64,000 nt of DNA from Pedobacter sp. (lineage in GTDB: Bacteria > Desulfobacterota > Desulfuromonadia > Desulfuromonadales > Syntrophotaleaceae). Each line of letters starts with the position of its first letter. Position 1 is the first letter of the stretch. Both the position numbers and the translations under genes were made by a program. Below are positions 5,923 through 50,036 of the stretch, one piece after another. The notes below the pieces were generated by a model. The model was given only the letters and a program-made list of their open reading frames with translations. It ran no database searches and was not told the origin of the DNA. Where the stretch lies: the NCBI GenBank assembly GCA_050253415.1, contig JBFWJC010000001.1, positions 1,224,679-1,288,678 of the forward strand, in the 5' to 3' direction.

Positions 5923-8190
5923 TTAAGCGTTTTTCCCCGCTGGCGAGGCTGTTGAAAACTGCCGGCGTTGGATGCCATAGCGTTCCATCAGTCGATAGAA
6001 CGTGCGTCGGGGTAAATTAGCGCGCCGCGCAGCGGCGGATACGTTTCCGCTGGCTTCCCGCAGATAACGTTCCAGCAGGTCACGCTCGATCAGTTCCATC
6101 TGGTGTCCCCGTCTGGCCCGATAATCGTTGTTGGCCTCGTTCGGCACAACTGTTTGCCCGCATGATCCCACCATTAAAGGCAGGGACAGGTGTTCCTGTC
6201 GTAATGTCTCTTCCTGGCTTGCTGCGACAGCCCGTTCTATGATCGAGGCCAACTCAGGGATGTTGCCCGGCCAGGAGTAGTGGCGCAAGGTATCCATGGC
6301 CAGAGGGTCGATGCCTGTCACCTTTTTATTGAGCCGGCGACTGGCCCGTCGTAATTGCTGCATTGCCAAATCCGGCAACGCCTCCAAGCGGTTTCTAAGC
6401 GGCGGTAATGTCAGAGTGCAAAAGCTGAGCCGGAAAAACAGGTCGCCATTAAACCAGCCATCCCGGACGCCTTGCTCAAGATCCCGATGGCTGGTAACGA
6501 TGAGGCGTACGTCGATCGGCACCGATGCTTGCAATCCTGCCGGGATGATGGTTCCCTGATCAAGAAACTTCAACAGGGCGCGTTGTGTCTCCGGCCCGGC
6601 ATCGGCAATTTCATCCAACAGCAGGGTGCTGCCATTGGCCAGCTCCAGCATCCCCTGTGACGGTTTGGGACTCTGGTGACAGCCAAACAGTTCGGCTGTC
6701 AACTGGTTATCATCAAGCCCGGTGCAATTGATGGTGGCCATCGGTTGGTTGGCGCGGCGGCTGTGGCGATGAATGGTTCGTGCCAGAGTTTCTTTGCCGG
6801 TGCCGGCTTCGCCGCGTAACAGTAACGTCTTGTCACCGGGAGCCAGCTCCAGAGCAAAATCCCGCAATCGCCGCATCAAGTCGTCTTCTCCGAGGAGGTC
6901 CTCCGCGGAGGTATGTCGTAACAATTGTACAGCGTGCTGCAGGCGTTGCTTTTCGCCCTTAAGACGTTTTATGAAATAGGGCAGGCACATATCCTCTGTG
7001 GCCAGATTGCGACAGACGGCGGTTGCGTGTTCCCGACAGGATGCGTAACCGCAGGCACTGCAATTAAGCTCATCGCGTTGGGCAAATTTGTCCGTGGAAT
7101 GCAGTACCCGGCGGATGTTCTCGCCACTGGGGTGTTCCTGGCGGCGCTGTCGGTTACTGAACGTGCGCACCAACGATACTTTCCCGCCATCTATGAGATG
7201 CCCTCTGTTCGGTCGGGATGTTTCGGTCTGTTGAGCAAATTGCCGTACCAGATAGCCGCGTGCATAGGGTGACAGGCGGCTGGCGGGATCGCAAGGTCCC
7301 AGACAGCCGCCACGGCACAGACGCAGGTCGACAACTGCAGGCTTGATACGGCCCGCAGCCAGATCCCGGAAAATCTCCAGAGCATTGCGGGCGCCTTCCA
7401 CGGAAAGAACCTCGCCGAGATCGCCAGGAAAGTCCGGTATGAAGGCAGCCAAGGTTCCGCCTGTCAGGGGAAACTGTCGGCCCATACTGAGTTCCGGTCC
7501 ATCGAAAGGCGCATCCGGCATACACCCCGTGGTGATACCGGCTTGCTCCAGCAATTCGGCTGCTTCAGCAAAGGTCAGGGCCGCATCGACCGTATCATGT
7601 ATCTGCTCATCGGTGGTTTCAAGCTTGCCTGCAAAGCAGGAACTTATGGTGACAACACGCAGCGGACCGCTGTGGGCACTGCGTATCGCTCGAGCTGTTG
7701 CCACCAGGGGGGAAACCAGGGGTGCCAGGTTGCGTAACAATTGGGGGAAATGACGTTCAATAAGGGCTACAACTGCCGGGCAATGACCAAGAATAATCGG
7801 TGCTTGCGAGGTTGCCGGAGTGTCAGCAGATAATCGGTCAGCCAGCAACTCCACCCCCCAGGCTCCTTCAACAACAAGCTGAAAGCCCAGCTTTCGAAGT
7901 CCTGCGACCAACTGTCCCGGGCGCGTATCGCCGATATAGGCCGGGAAGGAAGGTGCAAGGATAGCCGCCATCGGTTCTTTGTGTTTCAGCAGGCGTCGGC
8001 AACGTTCCTGGGCGCTCGGTGCGCTTCGGGCCTGTTGGGAGCAGATTTGCAGGCAGCGGCCGCAACCTATGCAGCGACCATGGCTCAGGTCGGTGCCTTC
8101 CGCTGTGACGCTAATGGCCTTAACGGGGCAGTGGCGAACGCAGGCATAACAGCTGCGGCAGCGTTGCGCATCGGTTTGGATAGGACCCAT
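5923..8190 (-). CDS. [FeFe]-hydrogenase-like Fe-S sensor fused to an NtrC-type AAA+ and Fis HTH
   Basis: Two CxxCxxCxxxC motifs, degenerate H-cluster motifs (GHCP, SSCFAGKLE, LCRGGCLG), LNCSACGYASC, Walker A GEAGTGKE, Walker B LLLDE, C-terminal GNVSAAAR HTH. Confidence 0.82.
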   Translation of the reverse strand: MGPIQTDAQRCRSCYACVRHCPVKAISVTAEGTDLSHGRCIGCGRCLQICSQQARSAPSAQERCRRLLKHKEPMAAILAPSFPAYIGDTRPGQLVAGLRKLGFQLVVEGAWGVELLADRLSADTPATSQAPIILGHCPAVVALIERHFPQLLRNLAPLVSPLVATARAIRSAHSGPLRVVTISSCFAGKLETTDEQIHDTVDAALTFAEAAELLEQAGITTGCMPDAPFDGPELSMGRQFPLTGGTLAAFIPDFPGDLGEVLSVEGARNALEIFRDLAAGRIKPAVVDLRLCRGGCLGPCDPASRLSPYARGYLVRQFAQQTETSRPNRGHLIDGGKVSLVRTFSNRQRRQEHPSGENIRRVLHSTDKFAQRDELNCSACGYASCREHATAVCRNLATEDMCLPYFIKRLKGEKQRLQHAVQLLRHTSAEDLLGEDDLMRRLRDFALELAPGDKTLLLRGEAGTGKETLARTIHRHSRRANQPMATINCTGLDDNQLTAELFGCHQSPKPSQGMLELANGSTLLLDEIADAGPETQRALLKFLDQGTIIPAGLQASVPIDVRLIVTSHRDLEQGVRDGWFNGDLFFRLSFCTLTLPPLRNRLEALPDLAMQQLRRASRRLNKKVTGIDPLAMDTLRHYSWPGNIPELASIIERAVAASQEETLRQEHLSLPLMVGSCGQTVVPNEANNDYRARRGHQMELIERDLLERYLREASGNVSAAARRANLPRRTFYRLMERYGIQRRQFSTASPAGKNA

Positions 8191-37296: not shown

Positions 37297-38203
37297 ATGG
37301 ATCAGATGACTTCGGGCTATGAAAATCTTTTGGAAAACCTTTTTGAGGGGCTTTATTTTGTTGATGCGGATCGTACGATCATTCGATGGAACAAAGCCGC
37401 TGAGAAACTGACGGGCTTCACATCCGCGGAGATGCTCGGAAAGCACTGCTCGGACAACCTGCTGAACCACGTCGATGAAAATGGTCGCCAGCTTTGCATT
37501 GGGCACTGCCCCCTGGTTAGGGTTATGGACGAGGGTCTCCCGCGGGAGCAGGATGTTTTTCTTCACCATAAGAATGGTCATCGCCTTCCGATCCGAGTGC
37601 GTGCCCATCCGTTATGCGACAGTGGCGGAACGGTGGTCGGAGCCGCTGAGCTGTTCACTGACTTGAGCGAAAGCTCCGGTGTCATGCAGCAGATGGAAGA
37701 TTTTAAGCGACAGGCTTTGACGGACAGCCTGACCGGTTTGCCGAACCGGGCCTGTCTCGAGGTTGAGTTGGAACGTTGCCTGGATGAATACAAGCGTTAC
37801 GGTTGGAATATAGGTCTGTTGTTCCTGGATGTTGATCATTTCAAGGCCGTCAACGATACTTTCGGGCACGATCGTGGCGACGATGTCCTGCGTCTTGTCG
37901 CCACGACTCTTGCGCATAATTGCCGTGCATCCGATATCGTCGGTCGCTGGGGGGGGCGAGGAATTCGTCGGATTGGTGCGCAATGCAACCCCTTTGAATC
38001 TGCTGCATATCGCCGAACGGAACAGGATGCTTGTGGAGCAGTCTTTTATCATGGTTGATGGGCGGCCCTTGGGCGTGACCATTTCCCTTGGTGCTGTACT
38101 GGCCCGGCCTGGCGAATCGGCGGAAAGTCTTGTGCGGCGCGCCGATCAGCTTATGTTTGAAAGTAAAAACAAGGGGCGAAATTGCGTCTCGTCCGATGTT
38201 TGA
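37297..38203 (+). pseudogene. PAS-GGDEF diguanylate cyclase frameshifted at a G8 run
   Basis: First frame ends VGRWGG then junk; the other frame resumes GGEEF...RADQLMFESKNKGRN; G8 at 37949-37956 where G7 restores RWGGEEF. Confidence 0.85.
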
Positions 38204-38720
38204 TGTTTTGTGTCTGATTTTCAGGGTCGCTGGTTAGCGGGCCTGTAGTCCTGTCCTGTTCATCTCCCACTGTTTGAAATTCAGTTGGCGTATTTTTTGT
38301 TTCACCTTCCTGTCATCCCTTCCCGAGTACTGCCTGCCTTTTTACCGCCTGTTGCACGATTTTGAACCAAACGACAAGTTTTCTCTGATGCCCTACGCTG
38401 GTTTGATGTTCACCATGATTCCCTTCGATTGCAGATCTCCTTTTGGCAGCCGCCGGCTTTTTCTGAAAGAAATTTTGTGACCCGTACGTCGATAGATCCA
38501 GGTTTTATCGCTCTATTTGTGATTGTTTGTAAAGTGGGTGATCGTGTGTGAGACCTTGAGGTGTGCGATGTGGAATGTTTGTGTATTGTCCTTATGTCTC
38601 CGGTCGTTCCATTAAATCGCCGTAAAAACAATAAGTTGTCAGCGGGTGTTGGCGCAGTGGAAGCATTGCGTGTCGGTTTTTGGTAGGTAGATAATGTTTT
38701 GTTGTGTAATAAAATTTACG

Positions 38721-38763
38721 CTTGACAACAAAAACGAACATCATTTACATTCATGTCGAACAC
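38721..38763 (+). promoter_or_regulatory. Putative cutC promoter with operator in the spacer
   Basis: TTGACA 38722-38727, 18 bp containing AAACGAACAT, TACATT 38746-38751; second CGAACA at 38757-38762. Confidence 0.7.
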
Positions 38764-38921
38764 AATGGTTCATTGATCCATGGTTGCAAGGTTGATTTAT
38801 CTGAGCCTGCTCGGGATTTGTTGGAGGGGGTAAGCAGATACGTAAGGCTGTTGCATCATCGGATCGGGGACGTTTAGCTCATGCTTGCTAACCTTTTACA
38901 CCCAAATAACGGAGGTTGATC

Positions 38922-41348
38922 ATGGCAGGATCTTGTTGTGGTGGAATTGCGGAAGGTGCCACCCGGAAAAAGTTCGAGCTTCCCGAGCGTATTCAGCGCC
39001 TCAAGGATGCTTATCTGCAAGTTAAACCCAGCATCGCTATCGGTCGGGCTCTGGCTTTTACAGAAGTCACCCGGGAAAACCCCGGTATGCCGAATATTCT
39101 GCGTCGCGCGCTGGCTTTTAAAAAGGCCTGTGAAAACGCTCCGTTGCTGATTCAGGCGGACGAGTTGATTGTTGGCCATCCCTGCGGCAAGCCGCGCGCC
39201 GGTGCTTTCTCTCCGGATATCGCATGGAAATGGGTGCGTGACGAGCTGGATACCATTGGTACCCGTTCGCAGGATCCATTTGTCATCACCGAAGAAGACA
39301 AGCAAGTCATGCGCGACGAGATCTTCCCCTTCTGGGAAGGTAAATCCCTTGATGAAATCTGCGAAACCCAATATCGCGAAGCCGGACTCTGGGAATTTGC
39401 CGCAGAGGCTTTCGTCAGTGACTTGTCCTATCATCAGGTTAATGGCGGTGGCGATACCTGCCCCGGTTTTGACGTGATCCTGTTCACTAAAGGTGTCAAC
39501 GGTATCAAGGCTGAAGCCGAGGCGAACCTTGCCAAGCTGTCCATGGACGTGCCCGACGACATCGATAAAATTTATTTCTACAAAGCGGCCATTCAGACCT
39601 GCGAAGGTATCGTCCTCTACGCCAATCGCCTGTCTGCCTATGCGATGGAGCTGGCAGCCAACGAGTCGGATCCCAAGCGCAAGGCCGAGTTGGAAAATAT
39701 CGCCAAGGTCAACGCTCGCGTACCTGCCAATCCTCCGAGTACTTTCCAGGAAGCCCTGCAGTCGATCTGGACCATCGAGTCGCTGTTTGTTATCGAGGAA
39801 AACCAGACCGGTCTGTCCCTGGGACGTCTTGACCAGTATGTCTATCCCTGCTTTGAGGCCGATATTAAAGCCGGTCGCATCGATGAAAACCAGGCTTTTG
39901 AACTGATGAGCTGTTTCATCATCAAATGCGCTGAAATGATGTGGCTGACCAGTGAACTGGCCGCCAAATATTTCGCCGGCTACCAGCCGTTTATCAACCT
40001 GTGCGTCGGTGGGCAGAAGCGTGAAGGCGGCGACGCCACCAATGACCTGACCTACCTGGTTATGGATGTTGTTCGCAAGCTCGGCGTGTACCAGCCTTCA
40101 CTGGCCTGTCGTATTCATAATCAGTCCCCGCAAAAATACCTGCAGAAGATAGTCGAAGTCGTCAAGGCGGGGCTCGGCTTCCCCGCCTGCCATTTTGACG
40201 ATGCCCACATCAAGATGATGCTTCGTAAAGGCTACGATTTCGAAGATGCCCGTGACTACTGCCTGATGGGCTGCGTCGAGCCTCAAAAGTCGGGTCGCAT
40301 CTACCAGTGGACTTCGACTGGCTACACCCAGTGGCCCGTTGCCATCGAGTTTGTGCTTAATCGTGGTGTCATGAAGTGGCATGGTACCAAGCAGGGTATC
40401 GATACCGGTGCTCTGGACCAGTTTTCCACCTACGAGCAGTTCGATGCCGCCGTCAAAGAGCAGATTGAATACATCTGCAAGATGTCCGCTGTCGGCACCG
40501 TTATCAGCCAGCGGGTTCACCGCGACGTGGCACCCAAGCCTTTGATGTCCATGTTCGTTGAAGGCTGCATGGAGACCGGCAAGGATGTTTCCGCAGGTGG
40601 TGCCGTGCTTAACCACGGCCCTGGTTTGATCTTCTCCGGCCTGGCCACTTACGTGGACTCCATGGCCGCCATCAAGAAGCTTGTGTTTGACGACAAAAAA
40701 TACACTCTGGCCGATTTTCAGAAGGCTCTCGATGCCAACTGGGAAGGTTACGAGCAGATGCGTCAGGATTGCCTTGATGCTCCCAAGTATGGCAACGACG
40801 ATGACTACGCAGACTTGATCGCTTCTGACCTGGTCGAATCGACTGAAAAGATCTGCCGTCAATTCAAGATGCTCTACTCCACCATGAGCCACGGAACCCT
40901 GTCTATCTCCAACAATACTCCCATCGGGGAACTGACCGGCGCGACTGCGGACGGCCGCATGGCCTTTACCCCGCTGTCTGACGGCATCAGTCCTGTGCAG
41001 GGTGCCGACAAGAAGGGGCCCACCGCTATTATCAAGTCGGTCAGCAAGATGAACGCTGAATCGATGAATATCGGCATGGTGCATAACTTCAAACTGATGG
41101 ATGGCCTCCTTGAAACTCCTGAAGGAGAGGCCGGTTTGATTACCTTGCTGCGCACGGCGTCTATTATGGGCAATGGCCAGATGCAGTTCAGCTATGTCGA
41201 CAACGATGTTCTTAAGCAGGCCCAACAAAGCCCTGAGGAATATCGTGATCTGATGATTCGCGTGGCAGGTTACAGCGCCTTCTTTGTCGAGCTCTGCAAG
41301 GAAGTTCAGGATGAAATCATCAGCCGCACCGTGCTGAAAGGTTTTTGA
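38922..41348 (+). CDS. cutC: Choline trimethylamine-lyase (glycyl radical enzyme)
   Basis: RVAGYS glycyl loop; GCVEP thiyl Cys/Glu; choline-pocket residues at CutC spacing ([16 protein letters not shown] at Cys+13, Y at Cys+17); GGAGG RBS. Confidence 0.93.
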
Positions 41349-41361
41349 GTCTAATCGCATC

Positions 41362-41389
41362 GGGGTGGCCCGGGTTTCCGAGCCACCCC
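41362..41389 (+). terminator. GC-rich hairpin after cutC (weak U-tract)
   Basis: ggggtggcccgg-gttt-ccgagccacccc. Confidence 0.5.
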
Positions 41390-41632
41390 AGTGTGTTTCA
41401 TATGTGTCTCTGGAATGTTGAAGCGGGCCGAAGGAATTTTTCCATAATAGCATGTTTGATTTTATGTATGTTTCGATGAAATAAGCCTGATTCGCACTCT
41501 GCTATCCCGGATGTGAACCGGTCTTGATCTGGTACAGGGAAAAATTTTGCCAGATGTAAGCCCTAGGAGTCGCCTGCGGAAGTCTCGCGCTGGCGGTACA
41601 AGCAGGACATTACTCGATGGAGGAGCAAGGCA

Positions 41633-43000
41633 ATGACGAAAGTGCGGTTTTTGAAGAAAGTTTGGCTTGGTGTGCTGGCCGCTTGCATGGGTTTGACGGC
41701 GGTGCCAGTCCAAGCGGAAATTTATGGAGTTGACTATCAGGGGTTGCATGCCGGGGTTGGTTTGAGCGCAGCCATGGGCACCTTCCACACCAACAATTCC
41801 AATTTTGGCGCCGGTGGCGTCGTTAATGGCGACAAGGACAACAGCTGGTTTGAGGCGTACATCATGCCCAGCCTGAATCTGTCCTACGACACGGGCAAGT
41901 TCGGCATGTTCTATGGAGAGTTTTCCTACGTAGGCACTCAGACTTTCGGCGGCGTTGACCCCGCAGGCTTTTCCCTGGATGACAACGGCAATGAAAATCC
42001 CGGTGACTGGGAATCCGAACTGTTCTATGCCGGGTGGAAATCCGGGAAATTGATCCCCGGGTTGCCTGAAAATGTCATCGATATCTCCTATGGTGAGCAG
42101 ACCTTTTCAATCGGCGACGGTTTCCTTGTGGCCGATGCCGAGTTCGACGGTGCCAAGGGTTGCTACTGGATCGCTCCCCACAAATCTTTCCGTGAAACCG
42201 CCATTCTCAAGATAAATACCCAACCGGTACGCGCGGATATTTTTTACCTGAAGGCCGATAAAGATTACGCCGATGCCGAACTGTACGGGATTAACGTCGA
42301 GTACATCAAAGAAGGCTGGGGTACTGTCGGTGCCAACTACATGAAAGTTACCAACGCTGACGAGAACAGCGCCTGGTATGCCAACCGCGATGGCATGGAT
42401 ATCTGGTCTGTGCGTTTCCAGGGTACTCCGCTGGCTTCTTTCGGGCTGGAGGAATTGTTCCTGTCCGGTGAGTATGCCGGGGAGAGCGGCGGGGACCGCG
42501 CAAAGGTTGATGCCTATGGCTACTATGTCGAGGCCGGCTGGACCTTTTCCAACCTGCCCTGGACCCCGACTCTCAGCTACCGTTATGCCTTTTTCTCCGG
42601 CGACGATGTTGATACCGATGAATATGAAGGTTTTGACCCTCTGTTCTACGGTTTCCTGCGTGGCTGGGGAACCCACTTCATGGGTGAGGTTACCGGCGAA
42701 TACTACCTGTTCAACAATAATCAGCATGTACAGATGGTGCATCTGAATGTATTGCCCACCGACAAACTGTCCCTCGGAGCTATCTACTACAACTTCACGT
42801 TGGACAAAGCCAGTGCCTGGGGTGTTGACTCGGATGATTTCTCCGATGAAATCAACGTTTACGCCGACTATGCTCTCAACGACAACGTGTGGCTGAGCGG
42901 CGTTTTCGGGTGTGCATTCCCTGGCGAAGGTGCTGAGCAAGCCTTCGGTGACGACCAGGCCATGATGATTGTAGAAGCTTATGTGACCTTTACCTTCTAA
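41633..43000 (+). CDS. Outer-membrane beta-barrel channel (alginate-export/AlgE-like)
   Basis: Signal peptide ending VQA, alternating aromatic strands, SGDD...FDPLFYG, C-terminal Phe. Confidence 0.75.
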   Translation: MTKVRFLKKVWLGVLAACMGLTAVPVQAEIYGVDYQGLHAGVGLSAAMGTFHTNNSNFGAGGVVNGDKDNSWFEAYIMPSLNLSYDTGKFGMFYGEFSYVGTQTFGGVDPAGFSLDDNGNENPGDWESELFYAGWKSGKLIPGLPENVIDISYGEQTFSIGDGFLVADAEFDGAKGCYWIAPHKSFRETAILKINTQPVRADIFYLKADKDYADAELYGINVEYIKEGWGTVGANYMKVTNADENSAWYANRDGMDIWSVRFQGTPLASFGLEELFLSGEYAGESGGDRAKVDAYGYYVEAGWTFSNLPWTPTLSYRYAFFSGDDVDTDEYEGFDPLFYGFLRGWGTHFMGEVTGEYYLFNNNQHVQMVHLNVLPTDKLSLGAIYYNFTLDKASAWGVDSDDFSDEINVYADYALNDNVWLSGVFGCAFPGEGAEQAFGDDQAMMIVEAYVTFTF

Positions 43001-43011
43001 CACGTTATGTC

Positions 43012-43047
43012 AACGCGGACCCTGGCTTTTGGGGTCCGCGTTAAAAA
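43012..43047. terminator. Hairpin after the porin gene
   Basis: aacgcggaccc...gggtccgcgtt. Confidence 0.55.
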
Positions 43048-43171
43048 ACTTCCTCCCAGGGCTCCCCGTTCAGGCCGATAGGTTTGCGGGGGGCCTTTTT
43101 ACTTTTCTCTGTCCTGGCGGCTTTCTGGGTTGGGGTGAAATGGTTTGCACAATGAACGCGGAGTATTGCAC

Positions 43172-43483
43172 ATGGGAAGAGATGGTTCAGATGATCCCTG
43201 TCGGGGTCGCTATCTGCAGAAGCTTGCACAGAATGATGAGATCCCTGGCATTACCGTTTGTATGGGGAAATCCTGCTATGTGCGCGGAAACCAGCAGAAC
43301 CTGGTGTATATCGAGGGCTTTCTGAAGCAGCGGGGATTGGATGTGCGGGTCGATTTGCGTGGCAAGCGGTGTGGCGAGTCCTGTGAGTCCGGGCCACATA
43401 TTACTATCGGCAATTCGGCGTATAGCGATGTTACTTTGGTGAGACTCAAAGACTTGTTGGTGAAACATTACGCGTGCACGTGA
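43172..43483 (+). CDS. Thioredoxin-like [2Fe-2S] ferredoxin (NuoE/HfsA-like)
   Basis: ITVCMGKSCYVRG ... CGESCESGP. Confidence 0.65.
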   Translation: MGRDGSDDPCRGRYLQKLAQNDEIPGITVCMGKSCYVRGNQQNLVYIEGFLKQRGLDVRVDLRGKRCGESCESGPHITIGNSAYSDVTLVRLKDLLVKHYACT

Positions 43484-43523
43484 TCGGTACAGGCAGCGGC
43501 CAAGCCAGGCATGCACGAATCTT

Positions 43524-44723
43524 TTATCCCCGGCTGGGGAGGAGTGCTTCCTGCAGCATGTCTTCAACTCTGACGTGATTGGTTTCCAGCCAGCGTAGCA
43601 GGCGGACATGATGTTTCAGGTAAAACAGATACTCTTCGTCCGGGCAGTTCCCTGTCTCCAGGTAGTAGGTGTCTACGGAGGCCCATTTGATCAGCGATAG
43701 GCTGGCGGCCGTCAGCATGGGCCTGAATAGCCGGATTTCCGATGGCAAGAGGAGGCCGGGTTTGCTGGAGCGTTCGGCCCGTTCCTGATAAGACTGTAAA
43801 AATAGTGCAGCCTTTTGTAGCCAGAGTTTGCCGTCCATGGGGTCTTCCCAGCAGCTGCAGAAGTAGATGACCGCCAGGGCTACATCAAACATGCGCAGGT
43901 CGAGGCAGGCACGATCAAAGTCGAACACGCCGATGACCCGGTTGAGGTTGTATTTCTGGTTGCCAGGATGGAAATCACCATGGATGGCGATAACGGGCAG
44001 ATCCAAAGCTTCCGCCAGTTGTTCGGATGTCTGCTTGCTGATGCGCAGGATGTCCGCAAGGTTGTCCAAAAAGTATTTATCGAAGCAACTATCCTCGGCC
44101 AACTTGGCGCAACGCTGCAGGTCTGCCGGAAAACGGGACAGGACTTTAAGGATGGGTTGGTGCGGGGAGGGGAGCGACCCGGGATCGAACCCGGCCGTGG
44201 AGCAGTGGAGTTCTGCAAGGATCCTTCCGGAGTAGATGTATTCTTCGTCGCTCAGTCGGTTAGATGTCCAGGAGTATTTGTCTTCTCCGCCGATGAATTC
44301 AAACATGGCGTAATGAAGATCTTTGGCGCCCTGAGTTTCCAGGGATTTCAGTTGAACAAAGTTCTCGCCCCCATTCGTGCGTATGAGTCGCGCAATCATT
44401 TGGCTGCCGCTGGCCACAATGTGGTCTATCAGGGCGTGCTCAAAGTAGATGTGGTCAATAGATGTTTCCGGACGATAGAGGCGCAGAAGATATTTTTTGG
44501 AATGACCGTTCTTTAGCATTGTAACGCTAAAGCTCAGGTTGGTGTAGCCACCGTAAAGTTGAGCGACCTTTTGCACGTTGCCCAGGGTATAGTAATCCCT
44601 CACAACTTGCGTTGCCTGGTCGATCAGCAGGTTGCAGGGCTGCTGTTGTGGCGGCTCTACGAAGTAGGGGAGGCGTCTTGGGGGTTCCCAGTTCCTTCGT
44701 AGTAATGGTCCTCCGCCCGGCAT
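43524..44723 (-). CDS. APH/choline-kinase-superfamily phosphotransferase (homoserine kinase type II-like)
   Basis: GGYTN, IHGDFHPGN, VFDFD; start overlaps the DeoR stop (TAATG). Confidence 0.8.
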   Translation of the reverse strand: MPGGGPLLRRNWEPPRRLPYFVEPPQQQPCNLLIDQATQVVRDYYTLGNVQKVAQLYGGYTNLSFSVTMLKNGHSKKYLLRLYRPETSIDHIYFEHALIDHIVASGSQMIARLIRTNGGENFVQLKSLETQGAKDLHYAMFEFIGGEDKYSWTSNRLSDEEYIYSGRILAELHCSTAGFDPGSLPSPHQPILKVLSRFPADLQRCAKLAEDSCFDKYFLDNLADILRISKQTSEQLAEALDLPVIAIHGDFHPGNQKYNLNRVIGVFDFDRACLDLRMFDVALAVIYFCSCWEDPMDGKLWLQKAALFLQSYQERAERSSKPGLLLPSEIRLFRPMLTAASLSLIKWASVDTYYLETGNCPDEEYLFYLKHHVRLLRWLETNHVRVEDMLQEALLPSRG

Positions 44724-45550
44724 TAATCGGCCACCAGTACTCGAATGCCAAGGGCTTTGAGGTCGTGCAGGTATTCCTCGGGGAGTTTGTGATCGACAAT
44801 CAGTAAATCGACCTTATCGATGGGCGCGACTACAAGGTCGGCCACGCGGCCGAACGAGCTGTGGGTGGCAAGCACGATTATCTGCCCCCTGGTTTGCTGT
44901 ATCATGGCGCGCTCAAGGGCGGCTTCGGTAAAGGAAGGAGTGGTTATGCCGTCGCGGAAGCTGATGCCGTCAGGAATCAAAAAAGCCTTTTTGGGGTGAA
45001 GCTCCTGAATCGTTTCCATGGTCAGCGCTCCTTCCATGGAGTGGGTTTCGGGACGGTACTCGCCGCCAAGAAGGATCAATTCGGCCCTTTTCCCCTTGAT
45101 CTCCTGGATGGCGCCTACATTGTTGGTATAGACACGAACGGGCATGTCCGGATCAAGGTGCCGCAATACATAAAGTGCCGTGGTCCCCGAATGGAGAAAC
45201 AGGGTGTCGTGGGGTTCGATCAGGGAGGCGGCTTTGCGGCCGATCTGATCCTTGATATCGGGCAGTTCCTTAAGTCGGGTTTCGTAAGGCTCCTCGTGGG
45301 TCATACGTTCCTGGCGATAAACCGCACCACCATACGTACGTTCAAGGAGGCCTTGGCGCTCAAGGGTTTCGAGGTCGCGACGAATAGTCATTTCCGACAC
45401 GCCCATCATTTCGCTCAAATCCGTTACTCGAATAGTAAGTCTTTCCCTTAACAGGTCGCGGATTCGCATATGCCGTTCCGCTGGCAGTAACTGGTCGTTA
45501 TGGCTAACCTGTCCATTGGCCTTGGTAGTCTTATTATTGTCTTCAAGCAT
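44723..45550 (-). CDS. DeoR/GlpR-family transcriptional regulator
   Basis: VSEMTIRRDL HTH, RTYGGA, SGTT, LLGGE. Confidence 0.93.
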   Translation of the reverse strand: MLEDNNKTTKANGQVSHNDQLLPAERHMRIRDLLRERLTIRVTDLSEMMGVSEMTIRRDLETLERQGLLERTYGGAVYRQERMTHEEPYETRLKELPDIKDQIGRKAASLIEPHDTLFLHSGTTALYVLRHLDPDMPVRVYTNNVGAIQEIKGKRAELILLGGEYRPETHSMEGALTMETIQELHPKKAFLIPDGISFRDGITTPSFTEAALERAMIQQTRGQIIVLATHSSFGRVADLVVAPIDKVDLLIVDHKLPEEYLHDLKALGIRVLVAD

Positions 45551-45556
45551 CGTGTT

Positions 45557-45612
45557 TGTTCGATCCTTTCGTTTTTTGTTCTTTTATAGCACTTTTGGAA
45601 GCTTTAGGGCAA
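45557..45612 (-). promoter_or_regulatory. Putative deoR promoter with operator-like repeats
   Basis: Minus strand TTGCCC-18-TATAAA, then AAGAACA / AAACGAA / ATCGAACA before the ATG. Confidence 0.45.
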
Positions 45613-45998
45613 TGGAAGTTTTTACGATAAGTGTCTGCTAAAATACGTTTTTGATTCCCGGGATTACCGCTTGACCGGCGGTTTTAGGAGTTTTGTGGAG
45701 ATCCTCTTCTCCCTTTGAAGTGCGGAGCCATAGTTGGGGCGGGTTTGTTAGACGATGAGCATTACCATATGAAGAATTATGTTTGCTTGTGAGAAGCTTA
45801 GCGGTGCGGTGCGTGGTATATGCTGTCATCCCGATGTTTGGATTAAAAGGCTTTAGGTGTATTTGAAGATGTTGAAAAAACGTGGTTTTATGATTCGCTG
45901 TCAAGGCTATGAGATAGGGCTTTCCAGGCGATTGCAGGGGTGTGTGCAGATCAGGGCTAGGGTGTTCTAGGATGCTCGATGTTTCTTTTAAAATAACA

Positions 45999-46041
45999 CT
46001 TGACAACATAAACGAACATGACCTAGAGTTTGATTGTTCAT
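45999..46041 (+). promoter_or_regulatory. Putative promoter/operator of the transporter operon
   Basis: CTTGACAACATAAACGAACAT is 20/21 identical to 38721-38741; TAGAGT -10 at the same 18-bp spacing; inverted TGTTCAT downstream. Confidence 0.7.
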
Positions 46042-46556
46042 GTGGACACTAAAGTTACTTGAGGGCGACGGCTCTCGGGCCTGTTTGTTTACGGATGTTT
46101 GCGTTAGCTTGTTACGCGTTGCATTTGTAATACATAGGTTGCAAAGGGCGTACAGGTGCATGCAACGATCCGTTTGGAGTTTGTTCCAAATCGGGTTTTA
46201 GCAAGTCCTTTTAAGTTGCAGGACTTCGGCACTTACGACGCAATAGGTTGGTTCGATTGTGGTTGCTGTCTGGGTGATGGTCGCCGGACGGGTTTGAGAT
46301 GTGTTTTCGAGGCGATGAATGCCAAGCGGATTGAATGCGAGGTCCTTTGTTTCATGGGGGCTCGTCTGCTGACCCGTGGAGGGCAAATCCTCCAAAGGTG
46401 GGCACTGCCGGCTGCCTCATCGGTCGGTGTTTTGGTAATCCACAAAAGTATTATGCAAATGATTGAGTTGCCCTTTTCTGATTGAAGTGTGCTTTACCAA
46501 TGGCAGTTTTCACTCTAAGGGTAGGACAAAACAACCATTTTATTGGAGACGGCATT

Positions 46557-47588
46557 ATGGCTAACGGGGTGCAATCAGCAAGTATCGCCGGAACACGGGT
46601 TTCGGCACGGCAAGTTTTTGAACAAAAAGAACTGGGGTTTGTCAAGCGAGGCCTGGCAACCGCTCTGGGTTCGGGTATGTTGTGGGGGCTTGACGGTGTC
46701 ATTCTCGGCATAGCGCTGGCGATGGCTCCTTTTACCGCGGGTGCCACGATGTATGCGGCACCACTGGCCGGTTCGGCATTGCATGACGGGTTCGCCGGTC
46801 TGTGGCTGGCTCTTTACAATATCTTTACCGGTCGCTGGAAAGACATCGGCCGTTCCTTGAAAACCTTCCCTGGTTTTATCGTTTGCCTGGGGGCATTGCT
46901 CGGCGGCCCGATCGGCATGGGTGCCTATCTGCTTGGTATTAACTTTGCCGGCGCTGCTTATGCCATGGGGATTTCCGCCGGCTATCCGGTCGTTGGCGCC
47001 ATTATGGCCCGTCTGATTCTCAAAGAAAAAATCAGCCCTCGTGTCTGGGCCGGCATTCTTATCTGTGTGGCCGGTGCAGTCATTCTTGGCTATGTTCCGC
47101 CTGAGGGTGGCTCTATGCCGCACTTCTACCTCGGTATCGGTTGTTCCTTGCTGGCTGCATTTGGCTGGGGTACGGAAGGTGTTCTGGCTACCTTCGGTAT
47201 GGACATGGTAGACCCGGCGGTCGCCATTAATATTCGCGAAGCCACTTCCTGTGTTGTTTCCTTGCTGGCAGTCCTTCCGTTTGTTGCCGGACTGGCTGTT
47301 TTCGGTCAGGCGCTGATTACGCCTAATGTTGTGTGGATTATCGCTCTTGCAGGTTTGGCCGGTGGTTTCTCCTACCTGCTCTGGTACAAGGCTTTCAGCA
47401 TGTGCGGTTGCAGTCGCTGCATGGCCCTGAACATCACCTACGCTATCTGGGGTCTGGTGTTCTCCTATTTCCTGACAGACGTTGCGATTACCACCAACCT
47501 GGTCATCGGCGCCATCGTCATCACCATTGGCGCTATCATGGTCGTTGGCAATCCCAAAGAAATGATCAACCTGCGGGCGGAGGTTTAA
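46557..47588 (+). CDS. EamA/DMT-family transporter, LicB-like (probable choline uptake)
   Basis: About 10 TM segments; LHD.F, LGGPIGM.AY, GWGTEGV, MALNITY..W; context in the cut locus. Confidence 0.75.
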   Translation: MANGVQSASIAGTRVSARQVFEQKELGFVKRGLATALGSGMLWGLDGVILGIALAMAPFTAGATMYAAPLAGSALHDGFAGLWLALYNIFTGRWKDIGRSLKTFPGFIVCLGALLGGPIGMGAYLLGINFAGAAYAMGISAGYPVVGAIMARLILKEKISPRVWAGILICVAGAVILGYVPPEGGSMPHFYLGIGCSLLAAFGWGTEGVLATFGMDMVDPAVAINIREATSCVVSLLAVLPFVAGLAVFGQALITPNVVWIIALAGLAGGFSYLLWYKAFSMCGCSRCMALNITYAIWGLVFSYFLTDVAITTNLVIGAIVITIGAIMVVGNPKEMINLRAEV

Positions 47589-47589
47589 A

Positions 47590-47874
47590 ATGGCAGCTGT
47601 ACTTCCAATGCGTTTCCGGATCCTTCATTACTTCTCCACTGTGAAGGAAGCTTCGACAAAAGAACTGATGAACGGCCTGCGTTCCGAATACGGCAGCGAA
47701 GGGCAGTTCAACGAAAATGTCATCAACGAACATCTCATGTCCATGCGGGCAGGAGGACTGATCGAAACCAACGATATCGAATTGGACCAGAGCAATAACC
47801 TGGTTGTCAATTATTCGATCACCGAATTCGGGCAGGGGCGTCTCAAGTATCTGCCTAAATCCTGGAAGATCTAA
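47590..47874 (+). CDS. Small winged-helix-like protein
   Basis: 94 aa, starts 1 nt after the transporter stop; EYG.E.QF ... YSITEFG wing pattern. Confidence 0.65.
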   Translation: MAAVLPMRFRILHYFSTVKEASTKELMNGLRSEYGSEGQFNENVINEHLMSMRAGGLIETNDIELDQSNNLVVNYSITEFGQGRLKYLPKSWKI

Positions 47875-47887
47875 ACGTAAGCAGCAG

Positions 47888-47930
47888 CTGAAAAATCGCC
47901 GTCCTAATGATCGGGGCGGCGATTTTTCAG
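47888..47930. terminator. Terminator hairpin
   Basis: ctgaaaaatcgccgtcc...gggcggcgatttttcag. Confidence 0.8.
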
Positions 47931-47990
47931 AGTAATTGGTGAATGGTGATTGATTTTAAATGATTTTGACCCATCACCAGTCACCAGTTA

Positions 47991-48159
47991 CTGGGAGTCT
48001 GTCGGACTATCCATGAGCCGGCTGCAAATTCGTTTGTTTGGCCCATATTTCAGGTCCTTTTTGGCCCATAGTTACAACTATGAACCTTCAAACGACCTAA
48101 AATCTGTTCTCAAACATCCAAATTTTCGCTTCGCCCCTTATAGTCCGACAGGCTCCTAG
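47991..48159. mobile_element. MITE-like element with 20-bp terminal inverted repeats
   Basis: ctgggagtctgtcggactat ... atagtccgacaggctcctag (18/20 complementary); no credible coding capacity. Confidence 0.7.
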
Positions 48160-48190
48160 TCACTCCGTTTCACTGTCGAGAGGTAACACC

Positions 48191-49147
48191 ATGAGTGAAC
48201 AAGCAACGATAAAAGGCGTGGTTTTCGATATCCAGAAGTATTCCATGCACGATGGTCCCGGCGTGAGAACGCTGGTCTTCCTTAAGGGATGTCCTCTGCG
48301 CTGTAAATGGTGTTCCAACCCTGAAAGTATTTCCTCCGCATTTCAAGTAATGTGTCTGGCCGACCAGTGTGTTTCCTGCGGTCGGTGTATCGATGTCTGT
48401 CCTTCCGGGGTTCACAAAATGGTAGCCGTCAGCAATGGTCAACCGCAGCACCAGGTCGACCGTACCGCAACCTGCATCGGTTGCGGTGTCTGCGCGAAAA
48501 GTTGCCCAGCCAAGGCGTTGCGTATTGCGGGCAAGGAAATGACGGTGGACGAAGTGGTCAGCGTCATTATGGAAGATCAGTTTTTTTATTTCACATCCGG
48601 CGGGGGGGTAACCATCGGCGGTGGTGAACCGACTTTTCAGCCGGCCTTCGCCGGTGCCATACTACGTCAAGCTCGTCTCAATGGCGTGCATACCGCCATG
48701 GAAACCTGTGGCCAGTCAACGTGGGAGATCTATCAGGAGCTGGCACCTTACACCGATCTGTTTCTTTATGATCTCAAGCATATTGATCCTGATAGGCACA
48801 AGGCCAATACCGGTGTCAGCAATGAACGGATTTTGGACAACCTCGCCCGCCTGCTCGAACTCGGGGCCAATGTGCTGGTAAGGATCCCGCTGATCGCAGG
48901 AGTGAACGATGACGTCGATTCACTGTCCCGGGCTTTGTCCTGGCTTGAGAAGACCGCGAACAATGCCTCCAATCTCAAAGGGGTCGAGGTCTTGCCTTAT
49001 CACCGCTTGGGGGAAAGCAAATACCATCAGCTCAATGAGGAATATCCCATGGGCGCCATGGCCGGGCATACGGACGATCAGTTGAAAGAGGTTGAAAAAA
49101 TTCTTTTGCAATTCAATCTGCCGGCGCGTATCGTTAAGCACGGCTGA
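48191..49147 (+). CDS. cutD: Choline TMA-lyase activating enzyme (radical SAM)
   Basis: HDGPGVRT, GCPLRCKWCSNPE, two ferredoxin motifs, GGGEP, LPYH. Confidence 0.88.
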   Translation: MSEQATIKGVVFDIQKYSMHDGPGVRTLVFLKGCPLRCKWCSNPESISSAFQVMCLADQCVSCGRCIDVCPSGVHKMVAVSNGQPQHQVDRTATCIGCGVCAKSCPAKALRIAGKEMTVDEVVSVIMEDQFFYFTSGGGVTIGGGEPTFQPAFAGAILRQARLNGVHTAMETCGQSTWEIYQELAPYTDLFLYDLKHIDPDRHKANTGVSNERILDNLARLLELGANVLVRIPLIAGVNDDVDSLSRALSWLEKTANNASNLKGVEVLPYHRLGESKYHQLNEEYPMGAMAGHTDDQLKEVEKILLQFNLPARIVKHG

Positions 49148-49610
49148 TTGGCATCGGTCTTGCTCTTTAACAGCGTGTGCGTTTTTTATACACGGAGGTG
49201 GCCTTGTTCTTCCTCCGCCTTTAGCGCATTGGCGTCAGCTTTATATCAGTGAATTGTTGCTGACTCCCTGGTCTGCACGTAAAAATCCAGAACCTTGAAA
49301 ATTCAATGCATTCGGGGCGGGGCTTATGCCTGCCGCTTGGCACGTTTGCGCCTGACAGGAATGACTTTTAACGGAGTCTTTCCTTTGTGCCGGTCTGCAA
49401 GCCTGAATGATGCGGCACGTTGTTCTATCTATTTTTAATAATTTTGGCTAGATGTTGCTGATGGATAGTGATATGTTTTTCAGCACGACTGCCTTATTTT
49501 TAGAAGCACCTGTAGATAAATTTTGTTGGTTTTTAAATACCTTTAATCATGCTCGGAGTACGGGGCTCTTCAGCCGCAATTTTTTTCGGGCTTTTGCATG
49601 AGGTACCATT

Positions 49611-50036
49611 TTGGACAAGATCGATTGGACGCTCTGGTTACAGGTGGGCAATTTTCTGTTGTTGATCGTGATCCTGCAGCGGTTGCTGTATCGGCCGTTA
49701 CTGGCGATTCTTGATCAGCGTCAGGTCCGTCAGGATAACGCTGTGCAGCGCAGCCGGGATCTGGAGGCGCAGATCGCACAGCAGCAAGACGCTTTTGACG
49801 CACAACTGTCGCAGGCCAAGCTGCAGGCGCAGCAGGCGCGCAGCGCGGCGTTGGAGCAGGCACAAAAACAACAAGCCTTGCTGATCGGCGAAGCGCACGA
49901 TCAGGCTATGGCTACCCTGGAACAGGTCCGCCGCGAGGTGGCCGGGCAGCTTGCCGTCGAAGCCGGGCTGCTACAAAGCTATGCCGCGCGCCTGGGCGAT
50001 GATGTGGCTGAACGACTGTTGGGGAGGCCGCTGTGA
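49611..50036 (+). CDS. ATP synthase F0 subunit b' (start uncertain)
   Basis: N-terminal TM (QVGNF...LYRPL) plus coiled coil; first gene of the atp operon. Confidence 0.8.
   Translation: MDKIDWTLWLQVGNFLLLIVILQRLLYRPLLAILDQRQVRQDNAVQRSRDLEAQIAQQQDAFDAQLSQAKLQAQQARSAALEQAQKQQALLIGEAHDQAMATLEQVRREVAGQLAVEAGLLQSYAARLGDDVAERLLGRPL

Follow-up and report, generated by a model that had tools for sequence, protein, structure and literature searches.

A choline lyase locus with enzyme and activase genes apart

Anaerobically formed trimethylamine comes chiefly from the choline trimethylamine-lyase CutC, both in the gut and in sediments, where trimethylamine fuels methanogenesis. CutC is usually taught as a microcompartment enzyme. 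We analyzed a 64,000-nucleotide stretch (the window) of contig JBFWJC010000001.1 in GenBank assembly GCA_050253415.1, from a bacterium of the family Syntrophotaleaceae, which between 38.7 and 49.1 kb carries cutC, the gene for its activase CutD, and a set of accessory genes. An earlier reading of the window from its letters (the sequence-only reading) had listed a porin, a [2Fe-2S] protein, a kinase-DeoR pair, a transporter, and a winged-helix protein between the two enzyme genes; open reading frame (ORF) and profile scans recovered every one of these genes at or close to its predicted position.

The cutC gene (38922..41348, + strand) occupies an ORF of 38916-41348, with GGAGG at 38911-38915 pointing to the ATG at 38922 as the likely start. 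Its 808-aa product, a short form with no N-terminal extension, scores 1580 against the CutC model TIGR04394 (cut-off 1050). It is followed on the same strand by a gene for an AlgE/alginate-export outer-membrane beta-barrel, or porin (41633..43000; Pfam PF13372 Alginate_exp, 50.6 bits), whose product has a signal-peptide-like N-terminus and F as its last residue, and by a gene of uncertain start for a small thioredoxin-like [2Fe-2S] ferredoxin (43145..43483), which shows a CX4C...CX3C pattern and a weak match to PF01257 2Fe-2S_thioredx (28.7 bits vs. 24.8). On the - strand lie a small-molecule kinase of the APH/choline-kinase fold (43524..44723; Pfam APH, 80.7 bits) and a DeoR-family regulator (44723..45550) with an HTH_DeoR domain (PF08220, 61.2 bits) and a DeoRC sensor domain (PF00455, 135.3 bits). 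The kinase start overlaps the deoR stop at 44723, and the pair is translationally coupled.

The interval of about 1 kb that separates deoR from eamA holds no convincing gene: two ORFs there (45638-46009 and 46156-46485) show little conservation in sister genomes and are probably not genes. Three genes on the + strand complete the locus. The first (46557..47588 by its likely start; the ORF opens at 46482) encodes a LicB/MttP-like transporter of the EamA/drug-metabolite transporter (DMT) type, so that the protein previously described as LicB-like is an EamA protein by Pfam. The second (orf94; 47590..47874) encodes its partner, a 94-aa PadR-like winged-helix protein. The third is cutD (48191..49147), the radical-SAM activase of CutC, which scores 398.8 against TIGR04395 (cut-off 360) and begins 6,842 bp beyond the end of cutC on the same strand, as expected from the cognate activase that had been placed 6.8 kb downstream. 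DeoR and the PadR-like protein are the only regulators in the locus. The AlphaFold model of the latter (predicted local distance difference test [pLDDT] score 90.5, topology H-H-H-E-E-H) retrieves PadR/LmrR winged-helix regulators in Foldseek (E 1e-4 to 3e-3, TM 0.53-0.74); the protein itself has no PadR-like Pfam match, and a paralogue has a weak one (E 0.00099).

CutC, with its activase CutD, is predicted to cleave choline

The residues that define CutC, in Desulfovibrio alaskensis numbering, are Asp216, Phe395, Cys489, Glu491, and Gly821 (Martinez-del Campo et al., PMC4453576), and a 2025 quantum mechanics/molecular mechanics paper names Tyr208, Thr502, Tyr506, and Phe389 as further choline-pocket residues (PMC12451663). 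All nine pocket or catalytic residues are kept in the window protein (D180, F359, C453, E455, G785, Y172, T466, Y470, and F353, respectively), which confirms the choline pocket recognized by the sequence-only reading. This correspondence uses an offset of 36, derived from the numbering of the chain and a native length of 846 aa, and the alignment to solved CutC structures (including 5fau) is ungapped over residues 150-520.

The best structure matches are two from Klebsiella pneumoniae, the CutC core (1422 bits) and the full-length chain of 1150 residues; the CutC of D. alaskensis comes next (1261 bits). In the full-length Klebsiella chain, the core starts at residue 362, which aligns to window residue 22; the window protein has only ~20 residues ahead of the core, and the ~340-aa N-terminal domain of Klebsiella is missing. 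The description of a type II-like core without the long N-terminal extension is therefore upheld. On sequence grounds the two genes are a bona fide CutC and its activase, with turnover of choline to trimethylamine as the predicted activity; growth of Pelobacter species on choline is cited by Jameson et al. 2018 (PMC6200775).

A different function, that of a diol dehydratase, has been proposed for the homologous Pcar_0937/Pcar_0943 (Aklujkar et al. 2012, PMC3543383), and ethanediol is fermented by the genus. We regard it as very improbable that the window enzyme is a 1,2-ethanediol dehydratase and not a choline lyase. It clears the CutC equivalog cut-off by a wide margin, whereas the next-best family, the PFL2/glycerol-dehydratase model PFL2-3, gives 638.8 bits, under its cut-off of 678.2. 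Two further glycyl radical enzymes in the genome (G000:C8:78044-80383 and G000:C2:587695-590028) pass that subfamily model at 847 and 869 bits and carry N/H instead of Y208/D216; by these features they are likely this organism's diol or glycerol dehydratases. Since the choline-pocket residues are all kept in the window protein and two other enzymes with a different pocket pass the diol model, the ethanediol-dehydratase guess is unlikely for the window gene. Later papers, PMC6200775 among them, count Pelobacter among the cutC-bearing choline degraders.

No microcompartment shell genes in the genome

The sequence-only reading had seen no shell, aldehyde dehydrogenase, or alcohol dehydrogenase gene in the window, and indeed none of the 57 window ORFs scanned matches the bacterial microcompartment (BMC), Aldedh, Fe-ADH, or PTA families. 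Nor does cutF, cutO, or cutH adjoin cutC at the locus. The genome comprises 4.10 Mb in 18 contigs and is 100% complete by markers. A six-frame search covering all but 4,535 of its bases gave no match to PF00936 (BMC-H) and none to PF03319 (BMC-P); the controls, E. coli and Synechococcus, matched. Enzymes that handle acetaldehyde are numerous genome-wide and unlinked to the locus, with 12 Aldedh, 6 tungsten-type aldehyde oxidoreductase (AOR), and 13 Fe-ADH matches.

BMC-H is absent from all 17 genomes of the family, six of which have CutC above cut-off. Of 401 sampled genomes of the phylum, seven have CutC above cut-off and five of these were tested for BMC-H: three from a single genus show ten BMC-H matches apiece, every one on the cutC contig and several within a few kilobases, and two (G028 and G180) have none. 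We further collected the 80 best CutC loci from named genomes, of which 50 (in 49 genomes) were searched for BMC-H genome-wide and the other 30 by flanks of up to 10 kb. BMC-H occurs somewhere in 44 of the 49 genomes. The five genomes without it are two Pelobacter metagenome-assembled genomes (MAGs), a Desulfuromonas MAG, a Desulfuromonadales MAG, and one Anaerovorax MAG.

Another family of the phylum has a shell-less cut locus of a second kind (L022, G028:C1:376000-395999), in a genome without BMC-H. Its order is BCCT transporter, sigma-54 activator, OsmC, lipoamide dehydrogenase, GcvH, adjacent cutC-cutD, and lipoate ligase.

CutC phylogeny and the N-terminal extension

We built a FastTree phylogeny of 88 rows: the window, 75 of the 80 named loci, ten loci from further genomes, and two paralogues as outgroup. 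Five loci were dropped as truncated (L040, L050, L068, L073, and L098), and the support values are local Shimodaira-Hasegawa-like values only. A type I clade of 29 rows contains proteins of 845-898 aa, except for L030, which is cut at a contig edge and has BMC-H genes adjoining, and G028, which is 815 aa long with no BMC-H found. A second clade of 55 rows (support 98) holds the long type II forms (Photobacterium, Faecalimicrobium, and Clostridium tarantellae, 1135-1149 aa) together with the five Pelobacter-type rows; the window enzyme falls on the type II side. This clade also includes Peptococcaceae and two Desulfuromonadales rows. Within it, the Pelobacter rows have as their sister group (support 97) a clade of 30 rows with short proteins (792-809 aa from the likeliest starts) and Phe in place of Tyr506.

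The Phe506 clade comprises L019, L037-L039, L041, L043, L046, L047, L049, L053, L054, L056, L057, L059-L067, L069, L071, L072, L075, L077, L080, L093, and L102. Its members score above the CutC cut-off where tested (L019, 1337 bits), mostly with no BMC-H within 10 kb. Among 20 of these loci there is no conserved neighbor besides the enzyme, and often not even cutD.

The presence of an N-terminal extension was compared with that of a shell in 70 loci having at least 12 kb of sequence and an intact 5' end. Among CutCs with Tyr506, BMC-H lies within the locus for all 40 proteins of at least 838 aa and for none of the four short ones. The Phe506 group is mixed (19 short without BMC-H, five short with, and two long without). 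The rows are mutually related, so that these counts describe a pattern and are no test of it. Among Tyr506 CutCs, the extension could serve to mark encapsulated as against free enzymes from sequence.

It remains to ask whether the genome could hold shell genes that were missed, either in unsearched or unassembled sequence or as a shell of an unfamiliar kind. The 4,535 bases outside the search and the 18-contig assembly leave some room for this. A shell locus, however, consists of several genes that together with its enzymes exceed 4.5 kb, the family genomes without BMC-H include single-contig ones, and the window CutC lacks the extension seen in all 40 shell-adjacent Tyr506 CutCs. We give a missed shell next to no credence, and it is near certain that this CutC is shell-less and cytosolic. 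The idea of a cytosolic CutC in an acetaldehyde-fermenting host, already put forward in the sequence-only reading, is also the natural one for an acetaldehyde specialist, because aldehyde and alcohol enzymes are plentiful but unlinked. The lineage shows that a canonical CutC can work without a shell where the host is built around acetaldehyde.

Accessory genes and origin of the gene order

A tblastn survey of the window proteins against the 80 CutC loci separates common from rare companions. The EamA transporter occurs in 35 loci and the 94-aa protein in 26, nearly always directly after EamA. Porin, kinase, and DeoR are found in four loci each; the porin is absent from the other 76, and one DeoR match (L070, 32% identity) is an unrelated family member. 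The accessory set had been called unusual, and this holds in part: the transporter and the winged-helix protein are regular cutC companions, whereas lineage specificity is confined to the porin, the kinase-DeoR pair, and the ferredoxin, a variable member.

The nearest CutC relatives (L044, L045, L050, L086, and L094) have a contiguous cutC-eamA-orf94-cutD. Compared with them, the window layout is the same order with porin-(ferredoxin)-kinase-deoR inserted after cutC, and this insertion accounts for the 6.8 kb between cutC and cutD. The window layout is found at the same, syntenic chromosomal site in G005, G006, and G007; the G008 contig is too short. A Desulfuromonas MAG (L026) has the same layout plus a second eamA-orf94 pair, and in G015 deoR-kinase, porin, and ferredoxin adjoin cutC. 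The porin lies directly 3' of cutC in all Desulfuromonadales loci that cover the stretch (G005, G006, G007, G008, G015, and L026). Among the relatives, only G007 (73% identity) and G015 (44%) have the ferredoxin gene, which G005 and G006 lack.

In G015, a PP2C/SpoIIE phosphatase and a 584-aa PAS-bearing Fe-hydrogenase-like protein lie between kinase and porin, beside the ferredoxin (L012, 2624-5863). This arrangement resembles a sensory-hydrogenase module, of which the lone window ferredoxin may be a remnant.

The transporter and its partner also occur in another choline pathway. EamA homologues are found inside clusters of the type of the Eubacterium limosum mth cluster, and orf94 adjoins EamA in two such loci (L158 and L164). 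The E. limosum EamA counterpart is reported to be choline-induced (Jiang et al. 2025, PMC12155760), and so is Ddes_1354, described as a predicted transporter (PMC4453576); from its position, Ddes_1354 would belong to the EamA family of this locus.

The kinase-DeoR pair

The kinase keeps the HxDxHPGN and DFD motifs, and its model (pLDDT 89.6) retrieves N-acetylhexosamine kinase, homoserine kinase II, a microcompartment-associated aminopropanol kinase, and choline and ethanolamine kinases in Foldseek. By sequence, its single match among PDB chains is a weak one to homoserine kinase (2ppq, E 0.0018). Relatives are found in methyltransferase clusters: the kinases of L158, an Acetobacterium record, and L164 are 30% and 33% identical to it across 361 and 365 aa (E values of 7e-69 and 4e-66). 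Both loci have the order kinase-EamA-orf94-MttB, followed in L158 by a corrinoid protein and a pterin methyltransferase, as confirmed by Pfam. The proven choline kinase MthK (WP_052237066.1; Km 2.8 uM) of the mth cluster in E. limosum supplies phosphocholine to the MttB-family methyltransferase MthB (Jiang et al. 2025, PMC12155760). Through the L158 and L164 kinases, with their matching cluster architecture, the window kinase is assigned by homology to the family of MthK-type cluster kinases, and it is a probable choline kinase.

The contexts of kinase relatives were examined in the best 80 of 137 metagenome loci, many of them on short contigs; the two kinase homologue searches have matches in common. 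Within the stretch covered, 24 of these 80 loci have an MttB-family gene, 15 a corrinoid protein, and 12 a DeoR homologue. Seven have deoR-kinase-MttB on one strand (L116, L120, L121, L122, L123, L126, and L136), and in L121 a deoR-kinase-MttB-corrinoid operon is confirmed by Pfam. The window DeoR shares 44% identity with the one at the head of this operon. Within its own genome it matches only itself at E<=1e-5, and it reaches no NCBIfam equivalog cut-off, the best being AgaR (169 vs. 260).

MttB (PF06253) has no match in the window genome or in any of the 17 family genomes, and LicD was likewise not found in the window genome. Of the 17, the six genomes that bear CutC, and no others, have the kinase, and its coupling to deoR is kept in at least five genomes (G000, G005, G006, G007, and G015). 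In G008 (C2:9115-10223) the kinase matches in two pieces that overlap (residues 1-256 and 251-370), which suggests a frameshift or an assembly error. A kinase homologue from Syntrophotalea sp. is among the NCBI records.

In one metagenome locus (L160, 3-2818), a kinase of this family (31% identity) comes immediately after a CutC-like glycyl radical enzyme (51% identity), which makes a second, independent pairing of lyase and kinase.

A shared promoter box

The best two sigma-70-like sites in 38000-49700 lie ahead of cutC and ahead of eamA-orf94-cutD. The former (38722..38751, + strand) consists of TTGACA, 18 nt, and TACATT, agrees with the consensus at 10 of 12 positions, and begins with the 20 nt TTGACAACAAAAACGAACAT; the latter (46000..46029, + strand) consists of TTGACA, 18 nt, and TAGAGT, with the box TTGACAACATAAACGAACAT. 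The two sites share the 20-mer TTGACAACAWAAACGAACAT, present in two copies in the window against none expected. This box spans the -35 site and the spacer. Allowing up to three mismatches, three copies occur in the 4.1-Mb genome and none for a reversed control; the third lies 6.8 kb beyond the window, ahead of another EamA gene and an ORF with a weak resemblance to PadR.

The box is conserved among relatives. Four genomes of the genus have the block unchanged ahead of cutC, the same box stands ahead of eamA in G005, G006, and G007, and its core is kept in eight promoters of five genomes. More GAACAT/ATGTTC half-sites lie downstream of the box, and they form a palindrome in G005 and G006. The half-site CGAACAT presumably resembles the GlpR operator of E. 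coli. A conserved leader RNA ahead of eamA was also considered and was rejected because the length of the leader varies between genomes, from ~190 to 555 nt; no Rfam family reaches its gathering score in the window.

In ~1.8 Mb of loci searched at up to three mismatches, every locus with the box also has deoR and the kinase. A DeoR bound there would block RNA polymerase, since the box overlaps the -35 site and the spacer. The other candidate is the 94-aa PadR-like protein, in which case DeoR would control its own operon or something else. The protein has the winged-helix fold of PadR/LmrR regulators, is encoded in two of the three box-bearing operons, and is found with the choline carrier in cut clusters as well as in mth clusters. 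Against it, the box is found in none of ~25 loci with EamA and the PadR-like protein that lack deoR, although the homologues in those loci are only 31%-55% identical, and their sites could differ. We consider control of the regulon by the PadR-like protein rather unlikely.

A proposed choline regulon

The explanation that we favor, and hold moderately probable as a whole, is a regulon for a shell-less cytosolic choline lyase with choline sensing by the kinase-DeoR pair. Choline would cross the outer membrane through the AlgE-type channel, for which it is a putative substrate, and the EamA carrier would bring it across the inner membrane. Once activated by CutD, CutC would split it into trimethylamine and acetaldehyde free in the cytosol, where unlinked aldehyde and alcohol enzymes would handle the acetaldehyde that in other hosts stays inside a microcompartment. 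A small share of the choline would be phosphorylated by the kinase, if choline is its substrate, and the resulting phosphocholine would act as a signal that releases the DeoR repressor from the box. The presumed regulon would consist of the three box promoters, those of cutC-porin, of eamA-orf94-cutD, and of the second eamA-padR-like pair. The deoR-kinase pair would then have been carried over from mth operons to a lyase that does not use phosphocholine.

The role of the kinase as a signal maker is suggested because the deoR-kinase pair heads MthK/MthB operons elsewhere, yet MthB is missing from this genome. Phosphocholine is the first intermediate of the pathway in mth operons, and a first pathway intermediate is the usual kind of inducer for DeoR-family repressors. 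That an MthK-family kinase has been kept without its methyltransferase only to make phosphocholine, as the inducer for a DeoR acting on the three box promoters, is a proposal we advance tentatively.

The kinase could instead be metabolic, serving to trap choline or to supply phosphocholine for lipids or the cell surface, or it could be an inactive leftover of a lost mth pathway. In the setting where they are known, MthK-family kinases are metabolic enzymes (PMC12155760); the EamA protein resembles LicB, and the kinase match of G008 is split. On the other side, MttB is absent from the 17 family genomes and LicD from this one, and the kinase is kept, with its motifs and coupled to deoR, in at least five genomes. 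Choline trapping would moreover need a phosphatase and waste ATP, because CutC uses free choline. We judge a purely metabolic or vestigial kinase to be unlikely.

Several observations weigh against the regulon that we favor. Foldseek places the N-acetylhexosamine and homoserine kinases above the choline kinases, identities of 30%-33% leave the substrate of the kinase unfixed, and a genuine split in G008 would make the kinase dispensable in that genome. Some regulators of the DeoR family have unphosphorylated ligands, and the PadR-like protein is equally placed as a candidate for binding the box. The sequence AAACGAACAT has no exact match in 565 kb of metagenome deoR-kinase-MttB loci, with scattered two-mismatch matches to a longer pattern; the DeoRs of those operons are only 38%-47% identical to that of the window, which weakens this comparison. 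The box could be merely a lineage-specific promoter, and the counts for its co-occurrence with deoR and kinase are not independent, because the carriers are related (two genera of one family, plus the Desulfuromonas MAG L026). The ferredoxin is not essential to the system, since it is missing from two sister genomes.

If the proposal is correct, cut genes have a third regulatory system besides those of MerR and TetR, and a catabolic enzyme has been recruited as the input device of a repressor. The kinase-DeoR pair links two known anaerobic choline pathways, lyase and demethylase. It is a concrete candidate for choline sensing, possibly as a switch that responds to choline or phosphocholine, and so bears on the prediction of cutC expression in the environment.

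Comparison with known cut and mth systems

The headline feature of the locus was already known. The shell-less state of Pelobacter cut genes, offered as new in the sequence-only reading, is in print (Jameson et al. 2018, PMC6200775), as is the split layout of Pcar_0937 and Pcar_0943, whose intervening genes were called of uncertain relevance (Aklujkar et al. 2012, PMC3543383). In a survey of 459 genomes, cutC/cutD were not clustered with other cut genes in three (Martinez-del Campo et al., PMC4453576). Schmidt 2014 (PMC4275255) makes no mention of choline, microcompartment, or glycyl, and Jameson 2016 (PMC5537630) does not mention Pelobacter. Among the papers searched, we found none linking DeoR, phosphocholine, and choline catabolism, and none on Syntrophotalea and choline. 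New relative to the papers searched are the assignment of the kinase to the MthK-type cluster family, the deoR-kinase heads of seven mth-type operons, and the lack of MttB in the genome; new relative to the Pelobacter papers are the shared promoter box and the probable logic of the accessory genes.

The closest counterparts of the window locus are those of Pelobacter itself. In P. carbinolicus and P. acetylenicus (Pcar_0937...Pcar_0943), enzyme and activase are likewise several genes apart with no shell genes nearby, and a near-identical Pelobacter sp. locus (L024) has a CutC of 98% identity. The window genome and G007 differ from the Pelobacter locus of the literature in having one more gene, for a [2Fe-2S] ferredoxin.

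The type II (GRM2) systems of Klebsiella, Proteus, and E. coli have the nearest solved CutC core and lie on the same side of the CutC tree. They have the ~340-aa N-terminal domain, BMC-H and BMC-P, and adjacent cutF/cutO/cutH, whereas the window locus has none of these; their clusters are regulated by TetR (PMC4453576, PMC6971018), as opposed to DeoR here. The type I (GRM1) system of Desulfovibrio shares with the window locus an EamA-type transporter with a small partner gene (L035) and an obligately anaerobic deltaproteobacterial host. It differs in having ~20 genes, of which eight are shell genes, a CutC with a ~40-60-aa extension, and a MerR activator, none of which is seen in the window locus.

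The MthK-MthB-MthC-MthA cluster of E. limosum has in common with the window locus a kinase of the same family, an EamA carrier, and a small partner. Unlike that cluster, the window genome belongs to a family without an MttB-family methyltransferase, and the locus has no linked corrinoid protein or pterin methyltransferase. The kinase is paired with a methyltransferase in the mth cluster, and in the window with a choline lyase that does not use phosphocholine.

Neighboring genes

The locus is flanked upstream by a TPR/DUF4037/DUF4125 gene group and a PAS-GGDEF gene and downstream by an ATP synthase operon. The PAS-GGDEF diguanylate cyclase gene (37297-38205, + strand) shifts frame at the GGEEF motif: the ORF that opens at 37297 stops at 38058 after out-of-frame residues, and the remainder of the domain lies in another frame at ~37955-38205. 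The frame change reflects either a pseudogene or an assembly error. Elsewhere in the window, a gene on the - strand (5923-8190) encodes a 755-aa protein that combines ferredoxin, Fe-hydrogenase large-subunit, and sigma-54 activator AAA+ domains with a Fis-type helix-turn-helix.

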